Part shown: positions 19,529-52,303 of the stretch, piece after piece
Numbering within the stretch: the stretch's first letter is position 1
Layout: each line of letters starts with the position of its first letter
From: Squalus acanthias
Taxonomy: Eukaryota
Assembly (NCBI GenBank): GCA_030390025.1
Contig: CM059431.1
Coordinates: forward strand, 159,404,001 to 159,468,000
Length of the DNA stretch: 64,000 bases
Direction: 5' to 3'
The notes under the pieces: generated by a model
Told to the model about the DNA's origin: nothing
The model's input: the letters and a program-made list of their open reading frames with translations, nothing else
Databases searched by the model: none
Program-made: the position numbers and the translations under genes

Positions 19529-21672
19529 TAAGATTTACTTTATGTACCAAGTATTTGTTCACCTGTCCTAATATGTGGCTCGATGTTAAATCGTGTTTTA
19601 TAACGCTTCGGTGAAGCGCCCTGGGACGTTTCACTTCGTTAAAGGAGCTGTAATAATTCAGTTTGTTGTAGTTGTTGTGTAGCACAGCAGGCGGCCGCTG
19701 AAAGACGTTTACAACCACGGCCCATTCCCCTTGCGCGTTGAGAAAGCTTCTTCCACTTAATGAGCCGATTAGATGTATTCTTAATCCACGCCGCTTGCAT
19801 TCCAAGGTGATAAAAAGACGCTCAAGCATTTTCATGCATCTTGTAAAGGGGCATGAGTGGAAGAGTTTCGCAAACTGATTGAGTGAGTGAGAACAATGAC
19901 AGAAGCAAACAGTATAACCACCGTACCATTGAAAAACTTCTCAAGTCATCTGTGCAAATACATTTTTCAAATGACTGTTTTTAATATTATGTGAAATCTG
20001 TGCCTAATCATCATTATCTTATTTACCTGTCACAACAAACGATTACTATGTGCTTTTCTGTAACCCTAAAAGCATTTTACTGGTACTTCGGTAAAGATTC
20101 CAGCTACAGTGAAAACATTTTACCTTCTCAAATGTCTCTTCAAATCTGTAATTCCTTCGCCATGGCAGTGTTCTACGGCGGGTGATATTGACTGTGGGCG
20201 ATATTGTAAAATATTCGGCAAAAAAATATCGGCTGCCCATGATACACTATTTCCTTTCCATTGGGATGAATCCCGTTTAACACTTACGCGTAAAGTCCAG
20301 ATGTACCCGTTGCGTCAGTGGAGAAGAAATCAGGCGTGGAGCTTAATAGTTGGCTATTTCGACATCGCCCATTTTGCACCACAGGCCAAAGTAAAACTTA
20401 GCCACAAAATCTACTGCATGGCATAAAAATGCACCTTCCAGAAATGTTGAATCCTTTAAGCCTTATTTGCAGTCGGCGTAGCCGATGCTGAGGCCAAGGA
20501 GGTGAAGACCAAAATACATTGAAGTCAATAGAAAGCATTATTGGATGGGGTGTGTAATGACCACTCATCATAATGAACCCTTATTACAAACTATTTGTTA
20601 CGTAAAAATACATTGTCACAAATTATGCAATGTAAAAAAATCTAACACTGAAATTCTGCCATTATAATAAATTCAGTAACTGCAATCTTCTCATGGTAAC
20701 AATCTGTTATTGTACATCTTTCATAAGAACAAAGTATGTTTATTCAAAATTCACAAATATCAGTTGTTAAAACCTCTTATAACTCATACTGGCAATAAAA
20801 GTATTTCATTACTTTACACTTTGATTATTAATTTCTCATTAGAAAAATGTTACAAATCCCTAATGTTATGCTTTATTCGGTGTGTTTACAAACACTTCAT
20901 TATGATAACCTCTGAAAACAAATCTCCCATGATAGCATTGTTTTGTTACAGATCATATTGTTACTATAGTTTTCGCGTCTAGTCCCCTTACGCTGTGGAA
21001 CAAGCTTCCTGTGCCCGTTTGCACCAGATTTAAAATTGTTCAGCCGTAGGTGGGAAATAAGCCCACCTTTTCGTCAGCACATTGATTTGTATGAGGAGCT
21101 GAAAGGCGCTGTGAAGCCAATGTGCAGTCGGAACTTGACAGATCGCAAGTTTGGGATTGAGCGCAGCAGAAATGCCGAATTTGCAGTCAGTATTTTTAAA
21201 GGGGTTGGGTATGATGACCTACTCTGAAGGTAAGCCGTCAGACAGACCAAAAATTCAGGGACTTAATCTATTTAGTTCTGAGTTACAAAGTATCTGCAGC
21301 AGAGAAACAGGCCATTCGGCCCAACAGGTCCATGCCGAGTTCTACTTCAATATTTAACCCGTCACGTAAATCATTTAAAACCCATAACGATCGACTGTGG
21401 AATTGAAACATTTTTGCTTTGCTTTCAGATTGGCAGCATTAGTATTTTATAGTTTTATTTTCATCTCTGCTTATTATACTACCAACATGTTTTCTCTTTT
21501 AATGCGAGCTGAGCAACAACGGTCTCACAGACACTTATATCGAGGGACTCTGCTGCACACTCCGCACGAACGAGTCACTGAGAATATTGGACCTCCGTAA
21601 CCGTAAAATAACTGGTGAGAAGGAAAACTGTTTGAAACTGCAATCATATTGCCAACTGCATAACATCACGGG

Positions 21673-21895
21673 GAAACATAGAAACATAGAAACATAGAAT
21701 CTAGGAGCAGGAGTAGGCCATTCGGCCCGTCGAGCCTGCTCCACCATTCAATACGATCATGGCTGATCATCCAAATCCAGTACCCTGTCCCTGCTTTAAT
21801 CCCCAGAGTACACATATACCACCCTAATCCCGTAACCCCACGTATTTAATTCCCCCTAACATATCCCATCCTATCCCCATAACCCCACACGAATT
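21673..21895 (-). mobile_element. CR1 family B 3' end fused to a SINE-tail fragment
   Basis: (gaaacata)x3 tail plus ggagcaggagtaggccattcggccc; then ccctaatcccgtaaccccacgtatttaat, similar to the SINE at ~12160-12200. Confidence 0.65.
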
Positions 21896-30000: not shown

Positions 30001-31235
30001 ATGGAAGAGAGCGTTGTTCCCCAAGGGTCAGTGCTGGCCCCACTGCTTTTTTTTATATGATTTAATGACCTAGATATTGGAATACAGTGTAAAATTTCTA
30101 AATTTGCCGATGACACCAAACTTGGGGTTGTGGCAAGCAGTGATGATGATATCAATCGACTGCTACAGGACACAGAAAGGCTAGCAGAATGGGCAGACTA
30201 GTGGCAGATGGCATTTAATACAGAGAAGTGTGAGGTGATGCATTTTGGCTGAAGGAACAGGGAGAGGCAAGATAGACTTAATGGTACAGTTTTAAAGAGT
30301 GTACAGGGACAGAGGGACCTGGGAGTTAATGTGCATAGGTCCCTGAATGTGGCAGGCCATATTGAGAGAGTGGTTAGCAAAGCATATGGGATCTTGGGCT
30401 TCATAAGTAGAGGTATTGTGTACAAAAATAGAGAAGTTATGCTGAACCTTTATAAAGCGCTGGTTAGGCCGCATAATGAAGTATTGCGTCCAGTTCTCAT
30501 CACCACACTTTAGGAAGGATGTGAAGGTCCTTGAGAGGATGCAGAGAAGATTTACCAGAATGGTTTCGGGAATGGGGGATCTTAGCTACAAGGACAGGTT
30601 GGAGAAGCTGGATTTGTTTTCATTAATGATGTGGAGATGCCGGTGTTGGACTGGGGTGGACAAATGTGAGAAGTCGCACAACACCAGGTTATAGTCCAAC
30701 AGCTTTATTTGAAATCACAAGCTTTCGGTGGCTGCTCCGTCATCTGACGAAGGAGCAGCGCTCCGAAAGCATGTGATTTCAAATAAAGCAGTTGGACTAT
30801 AACCTGGTGTTGTGCGACTTCTCACGTGCGTTTTCATTAAAGCAAAGGAGGTTGAGGGGTGATTTGATAGAGGTGTACAAGATTATGATGGGTTTGGATC
30901 GGCTAGACGGGGAAAGGCTGTTCCCACTAATTGATGGTACAAGGATTAGGGGACACAATTTTAACGTTTTAGGCAAGAGATAGAGGGGGGCCGTGAGGAA
31001 AATCCTTTTTACGCAGTGAGTGCTGATGACCTGGAATTCGCTGCTGACGGAAGTGGTGGAAGCGGAGACACTCAATGTTTTCAAGGGGATACTGGATAGG
31101 CACTTGAGGGAAATAAATTTGCAGGGCTACGGGGATACAGCGGGGGAATGGGACTGACTCGAATGCTCTGCAGTGAGCCGGTACCGACTCGATGGGCCGA
31201 ATGGCCTCCTTCTGTGCCATTAAGACTCTATGAAT
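27021..31235 (+). mobile_element. CR1 LINE: ORF1 (zinc finger, esterase) followed by family A ORF2, decayed; possibly composite
   Basis: IVVGDSIVRG, VVVHIGTND; EN YVNAQS..ITETWL, YRPPN; RT AFDKVPH, FADDTK; 3' end gatgggccgaatggcctcc..gactctat. Confidence 0.88.
30627..30829. mobile_element. Fold-back Penelope-like terminus (family PLE-2) with hammerhead core
   Basis: 11-bp TSD gttttcattaa (30616-30626, 30830-30840) interrupting CR1 coding LDLFSL; inverted arms ~30666-30738 / 30752-30825; ctgacga-a-ggagc-agc-gctcc-gaaa at 30744-30768. Confidence 0.8.
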
Positions 31236-35300: not shown

Positions 35301-35974
35301 CACATCTGAAATTTGATTACGGCCTTTTAACTCACTCCCAGTGAGGCTTTACACTCTAAACTGAAAACTTTGAATGCAAGAGGCCTTACTACATTTTGCC
35401 TGCTCGTCATCAATAGGTGTTAATAAAGAGCGCGAAGCCGGGCACAGCCATCACCCCTCTCAACCCCCACCGCCCCCGCCCTCCACTCCCACCTCACCAC
35501 AGCTTTGCTTGCGCATGATACTGTCAATTTAGCACAGATCAGAAGCTGACTTGACAACTTCCTGTTCTTGACTGCTGCAATTCACAACAGTGAGTCCATT
35601 ATGTTGCCGGAATAGGTACAATATATAATTAGTTTATTATAGAATTTAATGTTCCCTTACAATTGATAACCGTTAGCAATCTCAAACTTCTGCTATTCGG
35701 ATACATTGAACGCAAGCAGCATAGGATATCACGTTGATGGAGTATAACAAATGTAGTGCTCCCATGTGTTTCCATATTGTTTGCATTGGATGACGATGTC
35801 TTCCATTGAGTTTATAACGTGCGAATTGAGCGAGCTGCGTTTTTATTGATTAATAACACGAATTGTGCTTCAGCTAAATACCATCAATTAGTGAGAATAT
35901 CATTGATACATTATCTATCGCAATGACATTCACTAAGGATACTATTACTACATCAGTCAAATAAACCTGACATT

Positions 35975-36440
35975 AAAATGAGAAGTCGCACAACACCAGG
36001 TTATAGTCCAACAGATTTATTTAAAATTACAAGCTTTCGGAGCTGTCGCCCCTTCGTCAGGCAAAGTTACTGTGAGAGAATCTATCAGAATTCACAGAAT
36101 ATAATAACACAGAGAAAATGCATAGATTAAATCTTTCCCTACATCAAAGACACACTAAGAGCACAGCCAAGACAATGAGATGTGTCCCCTGGGGCACATC
36201 GCATTGTCTTGGCTGTGCTCTTAGTGTGTCTTTGATGTAGGGAAAGATTTAATCTAAGCATTTTCTCTGTGTTATTATATTCTGTGAATTCTGATAGATT
36301 CTCTCACAGTAACTTTGCCTGACGAAGGGGCGACAGCTCCGAAAGCTTGTAATTTTAAATAAATCTGTTGGACTATAACCTGGTGTTGTGCGACTTCTCA
36401 TTTTTGTCCACCCCAGTCCAACGCCGGCATCTCCGCATCA
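35975..36440. mobile_element. Fold-back Penelope-like insertion (family PLE-2): ~430-bp near-perfect palindrome plus unpaired 3' terminus
   Basis: Arms 35975-36189 / 36191-36404; direct repeat tgacattaaaat at 35968-35979 and 36441-36452; 36401-36440 is the reverse complement of 30627-30664. Confidence 0.85.
36319..36348 (+). ncRNA. Putative minimal hammerhead ribozyme core (mirror copy on minus strand 36060-36031)
   Basis: CUGACGA-A-GGGGC-GACA-GCUCC-GAAA-GCUU; palindromic AAGCUU in place of helix III; helix I and cleavage site not confirmed. Confidence 0.55.
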
Positions 36441-36906
36441 TGACATTAAAATCATATAGCAGAGACTGCATGGTGGACCACCATTAATTGGGAACCAAGT
36501 GGGAAGAAATAGATCTGACGCAATATTAGTGCTAAGGGTCCTGGACAACGTTTCCTCCGCTCTGTGTGCAGCGATCGTCCCCGGAAAAGTCATCTGTTAA
36601 TAGTTATCAGGAAAAAGGTAACACGATGTGGAATCGCCAATGGTGCTTCTGGAAATTAGATAGTTCAATTTTTTGACAAGCCTTCTCTTAGCGTCTCGCC
36701 TGCCACACATTTGACAGAATTCTCGGTGCGTTACTCAATGGTGAATGGTGGAACAGTCGCCCTGTTCCTGGCAGCAATCCAGTGGCACTGCACAGTTCGA
36801 TATACTTCTCTTTTATGTGTCGTAACTCCCACGCATCCTCTAAATTTTGGCTGGTGTTATTCAATATAGCCATTGAAATAAATCAACCTTATTGAGAAAC
36901 GGCCAT

Positions 36907-36991
36907 TCAGTCAAAGTTACATCTGGTCCCGTGTACCTGGTCCGTCTCCAGAGATTTCTGTCCTCCTGGAGTGAAGTCGTTGCGTCCCAAT
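36907..36991 (-). CDS. NLR gene coding exon 7 (last; LRR end and stop)
   Basis: Acceptor ttattttacAG, phase 2; RLGRNDFTPGGQKSLETDQVHGTRCNFD*. Confidence 0.75.
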
Positions 36992-37671: not shown

Positions 37672-37863
37672 CTGATTTCCCTCAGATGATTGTTCCTCTG
37701 GATGAGGCGGCGCAGTGCGGGAATAGAGCTGTCTGTTAGTTTATTGCAGCATTTTAAACCCACGGCATTGTTACTCAAGTCCAGCTCCATCACTGACTGG
37801 TTACTAATGATAGCGGATGTCAGCTCTTCGATACAACCGTCTGTGAGATTGTTAGCTTTTAAG
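37672..37863 (-). CDS. NLR gene coding exon 6 (LRR)
   Basis: Acceptor tttggttttaccacAG, donor AG|GTTAGA, 192 nt, phase 2-2; LKANNLTDGCIEELTSAIISNQSVMELDLSNN..NKLTDSSIPALRRLI is a ribonuclease-inhibitor-type LRR pattern. Confidence 0.9.
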
Positions 37864-48200: not shown

Positions 48201-48794
48201 CAAAATCAAAATACTGCGTGTGCCAGAAATCTTAAATAAAACTGAAAATGCTGGAAATACTCAGCAGGTCAGGCAGCATCTGTGAAGAGCGAGAAACAGA
48301 ATTAACGTTTCAGGTCGATGACCCTTCGTCAGAACTGTTATCAGCTGGAGATGAAACAGGTTTTTAAGCAAGTGTAGGGACAGGGAAAGGTGGAGGGGAG
48401 GAAAGAACAAAAGGGAAGGTCTGTGATAGGATGGAAGGCAGGAGAGATTAAGAGACAAAAGGGCTGATGGTGGACAGAAAATTCTGGAAATACTCAGCAG
48501 GTCAGGCAGCACCTGAACAGAAAAGGGTGGAAATACTGAGCAGGTCAGCCAGCATCTGAGTACCATCATCCCTTTTGTCTCTTAATCTCTCCTGCCTTCC
48601 ATCCTATTACAGAGCTTCCCTTTTGTTATTTCCTCCCCTCCCCCCTTTCCCTGCCCCTATACTTGGTTGTAAACCTGTTCCATCTACAGCTTTTTCCAGT
48701 TCTGACGAAAGGTCATCGACCTGAAACGTTAACTCTGTTTCTCTCTCCACAGATGCTGCCTGAAATGATGTGTATTTCCAGCATTTTCAGTTTT
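48201..48794. mobile_element. Fold-back Penelope-like insertion (family PLE-1) with hammerhead cores on both strands
   Basis: 16-bp TSD tattgcagttattata (48185-48200, 48795-48810); inverted arms ~48235-48470 / 48563-48794; cores at 48702-48731 (+) and 48332-48303 (-). Confidence 0.85.
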
Positions 48795-48987
48795 TATTGC
48801 AGTTATTATAATTAGCTTCACTTACTCCAGTGTTTGTATTTTGCAATCATTTTTCTTCAATGCTGTAGACAGCCTTTTCACTACCACATCTTCCAGCTTA
48901 ATCTCATTGAGCCTAAACACAAATAACATTAGACATAACGTGGAATGTGTTTAAGTAGGGGAATAAATTCCAGTGTTTCACTCTACA

Positions 48988-50012: not shown

Positions 50013-50110
50013 CATGTCACACGATGCAAAAACCTCTCACGAAATTGCTGACATGCTTATGTAGATGTCGCGGATTCGTTAGTACTTTTCAGTAACTTAT
50101 TTAAAATTAC

Positions 50111-51833
50111 CTCAGAATTTTGCATTTGTGTAAAACCCCTGCCAGTCTCTGGATCCCTTCATCTTGTATTGAGCACTGGGTCAGATCTAGTTCTTCTAAA
50201 ACGTCACAAGGCCTCAGGACCGTCGCCAGTACCATGCAATCCACCCCACTGAGTTCTGAACCACAAAATGCAACCTTCTTTACAGATCCAAGCAAATTCT
50301 TCATCAGTGGTGAGTTTCGGGATTCATACAGTAGGTGGAATGTGGCCAGAAGTTTTGTTTTATTCTCCTGTCCCTCACTCTTTCCAATCATTCGCTGAAC
50401 CTCCTCTTGCAACCAATCTATCACTTTGCGGCCTGTTGATGCATCGAACAAGCCTAAATCGTTTGTTAGCTCTCGAGTTGAATATGGAGAGGAAAGACCA
50501 GCCAGGAAACGGAAGAATATCTCAAACCGTCTATCACTGTCCCAGGTTGCTTTATTCAGGAGCTGTTCCATTTTCTGTGGAGTTGATTTCAGGAACAGTG
50601 AGAGGGCGGCGAGAAACTCTTGTAGTGTGAGATGAGTAAATGTGTGCACGGCACTCATGGCTGCGTTGTCTTCGCGCAGAATTTGCATCACAAACCCGGA
50701 AGTGAATTTTGAAGGTTGCAGGTTGTGACGTTTGAAATCATCATCATGAAATATCAGGGATCTCTTGCTGACTCCCTCATAGGCCATCTCCCCGAGTTTG
50801 AGTAAAAGCTCACGTCTGTTTTTAATATTACAACCTTCTCTTTTTAACAAGCTGGCCAAGAAGTTTGAAAAGAGTTCGGTGATAGTTTCAGGAAGTTGCC
50901 TTTCTCTTTTCTCTTGGCCTCTAAAGAGCGGGGCCAACGTGGAACAGATGATCCAGCAGTACACGGGAATATAACACATGGTGTACAGGACGTCGTTCTC
51001 TTCGATGTATTGGAAAACGGCGTCCGCCATCTTGGCATACCCGAAAAATCTCCGACAATAATCTCTTCTTTCTTCTGCAAGGAAACCGAGTATCTCAGCC
51101 CAGAGATTGACATCTTTCTTATTCAGCGAATCCAGGGCACTGGGTCGGCTCGTGACCAACACCGAACAACCCTTCAGTAACTTCCCCTGAACCAGACACC
51201 GGACAATATCAGACACTTCACACCGACACTCGGGATCGAAAGACTGATGCTCTGGGTCCACGTTTCTCTGCTGATCACTAAAATTCATATCCTCATGAAA
51301 TTCATCTAACCCATCAAATATAAGCAGTATCTTCGCTGGTTCTTCCCACACGCGCTCAAGGTCCTTCCCAAAATAAGGATATGAATTTAGTACTAGCTGC
51401 TTCAGACTTGTCTTCTCTTTTACGTTTCGTAATTCCCGACATTTGAGAAGAAAGACAAAGTTGAACTGTTGATATATTTCGCCTGCGGCCCAGTCATGGA
51501 CAATCTTCTGCACCATGGTAGTTTTACCGATACCAGCCACACCTGTAACTACCGATGTTCCAGACAGGCTCGTTCGACCGAAACTGCTTCTGAATAATTG
51601 ATTAATACCAACTTCCTCCAGCGAATTCGTCAGGTGTTTCTTTTGCCATTTTTCGTGCTTTCTACCAATTTCCCAAATTTCGTCTCTTACAGTTCTACCT
51701 TCCAGAGGGCGTTTAACGATTATTACTTTTGTGTATCGATCTTCAAGCGAAAAAATACTTGTCCGTTCCCCACTATTCACTTTCATCTTGTCGCATTGTT
51801 GGCGGAGAGTTTCTTTATGTTTCTTTTGAATCT
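50111..51833 (-). CDS. NLR gene coding exon 5: NACHT (NBD-HD1-WHD-HD2) plus first LRR
   Basis: Uninterrupted 1723-nt exon; acceptor tttgcAG, donor AG|GTAAT; Walker A GVAGIGKTT, Walker B LLIFDGLDE, sensor-1 LVTSR, CYIPVYCWI, winged-helix FTHLTLQEFLAA, LRR LEELDLTQCSI. Confidence 0.96.
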
Positions 51834-52303
51834 CTGCAAATCAATTAAAATTAATAATGTCCACGGCAAAATCATTACACGTTGAATGAGCATGCGCATA
51901 ATGACTCAAAAGATAAAACATAATGACCATGTGACATGAAACGCAATGCCACTGTCTAATATCTATCCATACATCTCTCTGTCGGTGTTTCATTTTTTGT
52001 TTCATTCTTTCTTCGTTTCTATCTTTCCTTTTTCATTTATTTCCTTTCTTTATCTATCTATTTATGCTGTTGACACTTTATTTATCCTTCCATTTATCTA
52101 GCTATAATTTTCTCTTATATAGGTGTGTATATCTTTATCTTTGTACGTATCTATCAATATTTTCTATCAACTATAGCTATCTATCTATCTAGCATTTTGG
52201 GCACTGTTGAGGATATGAAAAGCGCTATATAATTGTACGCTGTTTCTTTCATAGTAACTGAAGAGCGGTTTAATAGTACATTAAATGTTTAAACACCACG
52301 TAC

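Follow-up and report, generated by a model that had tools for sequence, protein, structure and literature searches.

A hammerhead-bearing palindrome behind an NLR gene of Squalus acanthias as a likely neutral Penelope-like insertion

A near-perfect palindrome with a hammerhead motif in each arm lies just past the stop codon of an NLR immune gene in Squalus acanthias, which raises the question of whether it regulates the gene or has only landed beside it. In the 64-kb window examined here (the whole stretch of DNA that was analysed), the palindrome is very probably a recent 5'-truncated insertion of a Penelope-like retrotransposon (PLE). Its two arms probably arose as it integrated, and it is likely to be carried along behind the NLR gene as a neutral passenger.

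Structure and identity of the palindrome

The inverted repeat arms occupy positions 35975-36188 and 36191-36404, each 214 bp long and 99% complementary to the other. The hairpin of about 430 bp with few mismatches given in a preliminary description of this DNA is thus confirmed, the mismatches being three (pairs 36185/36194, 36178/36201 and 36122/36257), all of them changes in the right, tail-bearing arm. The centre, placed there at a single nucleotide (36190), is instead 2 nt, with the symmetry axis between 36189 and 36190. The predicted fold of the minus-strand RNA has a free energy of -405.8 kcal/mol (z = -47.9), and none of 100 shuffled sequences was as stable. Two further parts were absent from that description: the element extends beyond the palindrome into a tail (36405-36444), and a 12-bp direct repeat bounds it (35969-35980 and 36441-36452). 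The parts are as follows.

35969..35980, no strand: 12-bp target-site duplication, left copy; the final 6 bases (35975-35980) match the arm end too; present as a single copy at the empty site of paralogs L053 and L054
35975..36188, minus strand: inverted, short-ended pLTR arm; PLE sense on the minus strand, which is NLR mRNA sense; ends 40 nt before the tail end
36186..36193, no strand: arm junction at a natural CCC/GGG micro-palindrome of the pLTR; axis 36189/36190
36191..36404, plus strand: pLTR arm that carries the tail; in PLE sense, opposite to the NLR mRNA; matches the pLTR of L122, a full-length copy, at 98% identity
36405..36444, plus strand: PLE tail, 40 bp; ends at the ATG (36440-36442) with which the ORF of full-length copies starts
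36441..36452, no strand: 12-bp target-site duplication, right copy; the initial 4 bases match the tail end too

An assembly artefact as the source of the palindrome is ruled out by the target duplication, by a second copy with different arm mismatches and by the family-wide architecture described below.

A genome search with positions 35960-36460 returned 2,191 candidates, of which 40 were scored. Over 259 bp, the right arm plus tail (36186-36444) shares 98.1% identity with the L122 pLTR; this copy has a pLTR-ORF-pLTR structure, and its open frame of 882 aa starts at the tail-end ATG. This partial-tandem organisation was seen in all four long loci examined (L122-L125). All three ORFs of the family that were scanned contain RVT_1 (E 6.5e-9 to 2.4e-8) with a DKG motif. 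A GIY-YIG/CCHH endonuclease was read by eye from two Cys between GIY- and YIG-like motifs and two later His; Pfam makes no endonuclease call there, and many homologues of the ORF carry PF01541. The linker between reverse transcriptase (RT) and endonuclease, also read by eye, has the form C-x4-C-x2-C, and Neptune elements are defined by a CX2-5CxxC linker at this place in the cited passages of PMC8557442. Judged from this linker motif as read by eye, the family is probably of Neptune type. Relatives of the ORF in other sharks, 78-93% identical over partial lengths, are recorded as uncharacterized proteins. Exact matches across the whole genome number 1,389 for a hammerhead 33-mer and 9,065 for a tail 24-mer, with 0 for the reversed controls.

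The insertion combines an inverted 5'-truncated copy, a one-sided tail of 40 bp and a 12-bp target duplication, as in endonuclease-positive PLE insertions. That the hairpin is a PLE insertion is near certain from these sequence comparisons, and the earlier proposal of a TE-derived element holds, given the 98.1% identity to the pLTR of an RT/GIY-YIG element, the 12-bp duplication, the unfilled ancestral site in paralogs and the combination of an arm with a tail and an arm with a short end. By title and abstract, no prior description of this family or of a twin-priming PLE model was found among open-access papers; Repbase, Dfam or supplements may list the family.

Several smaller observations concern the family. 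A pyrimidine run of the pLTR ending in CAG (36395-36418, plus strand), just inside the tail, resembles a 3' splice site before the ORF ATG; the short arm ends before this AG and so offers no such site on the NLR mRNA strand. An intron ending within the pLTR has been described for Drosophila Penelope (PMC4209133). In another shark, a protein annotated as an epn2 isoform (P0135) includes a stretch 93% identical to the PLE ORF, which suggests exonisation or mis-annotation. Three contigs (L028, L029, L030) share one PLE insertion together with its LINE flank, which suggests segmental duplicates or haplotigs.

Inverted architecture and the origin of the two arms

The inverted arrangement is widespread in the family. 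On contig C1, 36 of 89 core matches fall into 18 divergent pairs no more than 5.2 kb apart, as against one direct pair and no convergent one (hand count). Taken in order, the first 20 tail matches on C1 comprise 12 with an inverted arm no more than about 4.2 kb away (95% interval 36-81%) and 8 without one. Short palindromes with a hammerhead in both arms account for 4 of 20 sampled tail matches (95% interval 6-44%). Loci from the genome search were ranked by likeness to the query and hence favour the tail, whereas loci found by core matches are not so biased.

In 42 of 44 tested arm pairings, a direct repeat of 12-17 bp flanks the insertion, which has one long and one short end; one arm ends at 244-254 in unit coordinates and its partner at 208-221 (in one case at 155). 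Of the remaining two pairings, one joined arms of neighbouring insertions, and the other, L077, proved on inspection to have a 12-bp duplication and the same ends. Each of the 43 true inverted insertions examined has a duplication of at least 12 bp and exactly one tail, and either arm may be the longer. Unit length ranges from 222 to 4548 bp, the arms run into the RT ORF, and the ends are asymmetric. An inverted copy, a one-sided tail of 30-40 bp and junction palindromes have already been published for PLEs (PMC8557442; PMC3846280). The hairpin is the standard insertion product of the PLE family, a known architecture. By extrapolation, the genome would hold some 5,400 inverted insertions of the family (12/20 x 9,065) and about 1,800 similar short palindromes (4/20 sampled x 9,065). 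Over a thousand near-perfect hairpins of about 200 bp are likely in this genome, a natural test of dsRNA tolerance in cartilaginous fish.

Endonuclease-positive PLE insertion units as described in PMC8557442 and PMC3846280 share with the window element the pLTR, the adjacent inverted 5'-truncated copy, the tail of 30-40 bp at one end, the target duplication and the overlap of the tail with the ORF start. Here, however, the arms consist of nothing but pLTR, most copies of the family have a target duplication of 12-13 bp rather than the 8-10 bp of the Adineta examples in those passages, and the family was nameless in the homologue search. Two other classes were considered and rejected. A MITE or foldback DNA transposon is at odds with a unit of 222-4548 bp that is not fixed, with arms entering the RT ORF and with asymmetric ends. 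Non-LTR retrozymes (10.64898/2026.07.22.740005) are likewise short hammerhead-bearing sequences derived from a PLE pLTR, but in the cited passages they form tandem arrays, whereas the window holds a single head-to-head inverted insertion with no head-to-tail tandem hammerhead repeats.

Two routes to the paired arms can be compared. In the first, the element endonuclease would nick both target strands 12 nt apart, and pLTR RNA would be reverse transcribed from each target 3'-OH, starting at the tail end in one case and about 40 nt upstream in the other; both cDNAs would halt early (about 255 and 215 nt here) and then join at the CCC/GGG micro-palindrome. The second, fold-back self-priming, has been proposed for PLEs (PMC3846280). 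When the 5' reach of the two arms was compared in 42 insertions, the short-ended arm was ahead in 16 and the tail arm in 11, with about equal reach in 15, the window hairpin included. If only differences above 100 nt are counted, the short-ended arm is longer in 9 and the tail arm in 11; for copies of diverged subfamilies these reaches may be too low. Most arm junctions in these insertions overlap by 0-5 nt. Fold-back of a single cDNA cannot explain a shorter arm with a tail that is absent from the longer arm, and therefore priming from both target ends fits better; the arm lengths in the 42 insertions favour it for the family. The cases of equal reach, including the window hairpin, fit annealing of two like cDNAs at the micro-palindrome or fold-back alike. 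One variant common to both window arms occurs in 2 of 66 arms, that is, in no other sampled insertion (some one-arm-only variant counts, inflated by flank in short arms, were excluded), which is consistent with one source template and one event.

A PLE protein has been reported to nick and extend both strands, to prefer ATT and to start reverse transcription at two points a tail-length apart, and it is predicted to form a dimer (PMC11167929). The rule of one tail, together with either arm being the longer, fits a dimeric complex that primes both target ends at two RNA start sites, which would extend the in vitro result of that study. The family offers a clean data set on how PLEs integrate. 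The element of that study, Poseidon PAc of Anolis carolinensis, resembles the window family in having two ends a tail-length apart and an AT-rich target (the window target contains ATT); it differs in that the window family has a linker Cys motif, absent from Penelope/Poseidon in the cited passages, and an ORF whose start lies at the tail end, not in hammerhead stem II.

The host gene and the history of the insertion

The host gene is recognised by a 576-aa frame (50107-51837) with NACHT, NOD2_WH and NLRC4_HD2 domains (Pfam; NACHT E 4.7e-38); Pfam returned no matches for three other ORFs of the window. Among the matches listed, the closest homologues are shark and ray proteins annotated as NLRP3-like, the best at 62%. 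Six exons run from 56902 to 36907 with AG acceptors and GT donors, in a single frame through to the stop, which ends at 36907 and, in the alignment to the best homologue, falls at the C-terminus, at residue 986 of 993. From its sequence, the gene looks intact and its stop correctly placed. Further NLR exons past 36907 were considered and rejected; no supported minus-strand LRR match lies downstream, and the stop coincides with the homologue end. The exons that matter here are listed below.

36907..36991, minus strand: last coding exon with the stop, from homologue alignment
37672..37863, minus strand: NLR LRR exon, from homologue alignment
48826..48912, minus strand: NLR LRR exon, from homologue alignment
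50111..51833, minus strand: NLR NACHT/WH/HD2 exon, Pfam NACHT E 4.7e-38

The gene belongs to a large family, with all 131 scored loci, out of 521 candidates, matching at E <= 1e-30. An expansion of NLRP-related genes has been reported in the whale shark (PMC8455134). Elsewhere in the window, a lone LRR-exon-like stretch (21482-21691, plus strand; E 3e-10 to a shark NLR), with no clear AG acceptor and a repeat at its end, is probably the remnant of another NLR gene.

Five paralogous NLR 3' regions were found on C7, and the insertion is present in two of the five close paralogs. The site is empty, with a single copy of the 12-mer, in L053 and L054 (about 90% identical); in L055 a LINE-like insertion removes the site; and a duplicate about 99% identical, 331 kb away (L037), shares the PLE insertion. 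The duplicate and the window are 98-99% identical over about 14.9-45.8 kb, and 92-95% over LRR1, NACHT and the 5' exons. High identity is confined to the 3' block, which was therefore copied recently with the insertion inside; after the integration, the 3' block, insertion included, would have been copied into a neighbouring paralog. This 3' region holds different TEs in two other NLR paralogs. A search of sequencing runs with the unique 3' flank listed one DNA run, X1, and no RNA run. One X1 contig spans the site and lacks the element; the X1 contigs, compared at the two flanks rather than at the palindrome, are 1-7% from the window, so that an empty allele, another paralog or a related species would fit alike.

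Between window and duplicate, the arms differ at 4 of 428 positions and the flanks at 17 of 1,821 (Fisher p = 1.0). Three of the arm changes are private to the window, and each disrupts a base pair on the mRNA strand; the fourth, in the duplicate, gives G-U. None is compensated. This is weak evidence that the arms drift at the flanking rate with no sign of stem protection, as the comparison comprises four arm substitutions between two copies about 1% apart and is blind to weak or recent selection.

The paralogs differ in other respects as well. L053 carries at 690-1435 a different insertion of about 740 bp with imperfect terminal inverted repeats of about 18 bp (MITE-like), in the same 3' region. 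In the duplicate L037, a substitution in the stop codon (window 36907) would let the frame continue for six more residues. The NACHT exon (50110-51834) differs from that of the neighbouring duplicate (L038, G000:C7:159121171-159122904) at 82 of 1,725 bases, in contrast to the 1-2% divergence of the 3' block; of the codon differences, 61 are non-synonymous and 16 synonymous. Part of the window NACHT is nearer to a paralog 750 kb away (93%) than to the neighbouring duplicate (91%). The pattern points to mosaic gene conversion, possibly with relaxed or diversifying selection.

Possible consequences for the NLR mRNA

The features that bear on the NLR transcript are these.

36453..36906, minus strand: unique sequence past the NLR stop, probable proximal 3' UTR, 454 nt; variant hexamer CATAAA at 36817-36812
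36248..36253, minus strand: ATTAAA, candidate poly(A) signal; antisense of the right arm; its use would end the mRNA before the stem forms
36016..36021, minus strand: AATAAA, candidate TE-donated poly(A) signal; carried by the pLTR
35633..35847, minus strand: native canonical hexamers past the element (35847-35842, 35650-35645, 35638-35633); also in element-free paralog L054
36027..36064, minus strand: minimal type-I hammerhead, mRNA sense; 4-bp helix I, 5-bp helix II, no monomeric helix III; helices read from sequence
36315..36352, plus strand: second minimal hammerhead, antisense to the mRNA; from motif search

No AATAAA or ATTAAA lies on the minus strand between the NLR stop and the element. 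This point of the preliminary description stands, as do the four hexamers it named (36253-36248, 36021-36016, 35847-35842 and 35638-35633); it had omitted the CATAAA at 36817-36812 and the ATTAAA at 35650-35645. The CATAAA, at +90 from the stop, is present in all five paralogous copies. In the element-free L054, the first canonical hexamers stand at +578 and +775/+787, downstream of the insertion site. The insertion is upstream of the first canonical hexamer and therefore probably lies within the NLR mRNA, unless the CATAAA at +90 serves. Predicted folds depend on the transcript end, with no stem if ATTAAA 36253 is used and 185-208 paired positions for ends after 36021, 35847 or 35638. These predictions agree with the earlier suggestion that a read-through transcript forms a stem of about 200 bp that hides the ribozyme core. 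Such a stem would be open to A-to-I editing, a side effect that inverted repeats share in general. Alu repeats in inverted orientation likewise place TE-derived long dsRNA, a potential ADAR substrate, in an mRNA tail when they lie in a 3' UTR. The window arms differ from these in coming from one integration event, with no spacer and about 99% pairing, and the likeness rests on the putative read-through.

The finding of one hammerhead core per arm, starting at 36319 (plus strand) and 36060 (minus strand), bears out the earlier statement that each arm carries a core and that one is in mRNA sense. The motif has the core boxes, helices I and II, a palindromic 15.2-16.2 and no monomeric helix III of a minimal type-I hammerhead, and its mRNA-sense cut site is predicted from the hammerhead consensus between 36031 and 36030; an Rfam scan of the 64-kb window gave 0 matches at gathering thresholds. 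Metazoan PLE minimal hammerheads (PMC4209133) are alike in the type-I core, the 4-bp helix I, the extra base before G10.1-C11.1 and the palindromic 15.2-16.2, whereas the window motif has a helix II of 5 bp and its pair lies just past the stop codon of a host gene. In Schistosoma, opposite-strand pairs of minimal hammerheads lie 100-700 bp apart (PMC4209133). Freeing the core from the stem is predicted to cost about 94 kcal/mol, against about -10 for the hammerhead-like fold. Without helix III, without a same-strand partner and buried in the stem, the lone mRNA-sense hammerhead would not be expected to cleave.

The insertion could be unselected and yet alter the NLR mRNA, either because the 3' UTR is cut short at a hexamer supplied by the TE (ATTAAA 36253 or AATAAA 36021) or because an edited stem of about 200 bp lowers export or translation. 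This possibility, which we regard as unlikely, draws on the position of the first canonical hexamers past the stop inside the element and on the 185-208 paired positions predicted for the longer transcripts. However, the pLTR AATAAA lies 41 and 81 nt upstream of the two insertion ends of the family, and therefore, we infer, template RNAs read through it; it would be at most a leaky poly(A) signal. The conserved CATAAA at +90 could also terminate the mRNA earlier. As counterpoints to neutrality, the insertion, if in the mRNA, could alter poly(A) choice or mRNA fate, and both copies of the recent duplication retain it.

Control of an innate sensor by the hairpin, as the preliminary description had suggested, is unsupported: the hairpin is a standard family product, it is absent from two paralogs (about 90% identical), and its arms drift uncompensated (4/428 versus 17/1821). 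At the density of the family, chance alone would place 0.1-0.5 inverted insertions within 600 nt of an NLR stop, counting 131-521 NLR-like loci; a single one behind an NLR stop is therefore unremarkable. Very unlikely, in our assessment, is a scheme in which the read-through stem and a PLE-protein-assisted hammerhead tie NLR output to ADAR activity or Penelope mobilisation, the insertion having spread to a paralog by tuning expression; if true, an expanding NLR family would have acquired a dsRNA/ribozyme control element recently and in a single step. Still more doubtful is a co-opted switch in which dsRNA sensing or unwinding frees the hammerhead, or a PLE protein or transcript completes it in trans, so that the NLR mRNA is cut or protected upon transposon activity or infection. 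One hammerhead motif is indeed intact and in mRNA sense, the insertion is found in two of five close paralogs, and PLE hammerheads can be protein-assisted (PMC11167929). But the Anolis PLE hammerhead cleaves only with protein, and RNA-seq contains no cut-site reads in the cited passages of that study; single minimal hammerheads are inactive in vitro, showing no cleavage in those of PMC4209133; the core would have to be opened against the energies given above; and there is no conservation signal in the arms, while about 1,800 similar short palindromes are estimated genome-wide. Hammerheads in Clec2 3' UTRs, which reduce reporter output (PMC2950038), are a precedent in or near the 3' UTR of an immune-related gene. 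They are conserved across mammals and reporter-active in the cited passages, whereas the window motif is minimal, young, missing from older paralogs and buried in a duplex. A regulatory ribozyme of the Clec2 type was rejected, as helix III is lacking, L053 and L054 are without the element, and the arms drift at the flanking rate. The regulatory importance of the hairpin is thus little, and the neutral insertion remains the preferred reading.

A self-contained mobile unit, MITE-like or retrozyme-like and copied whole, is extremely improbable: five of the best-matching short palindromes (window copy, L004, L011, L017, L019) do join at the same micro-palindrome, but they were chosen for similarity to the query, other junctions are spread over about 3 kb of the element and into the ORF, the variant common to both window arms (2/66) recurs in no other sampled insertion, and no head-to-tail arrays were seen in the loci examined.

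The window contains five further hammerhead-core motifs, at 30744, 34035, 48332, 48702 and 63615. One belongs to a related pLTR subfamily and four to a second repeat family, probably also PLE-derived. Those at 48332 (minus strand) and 48702 (plus strand) form a divergent pair just downstream of an LRR exon.
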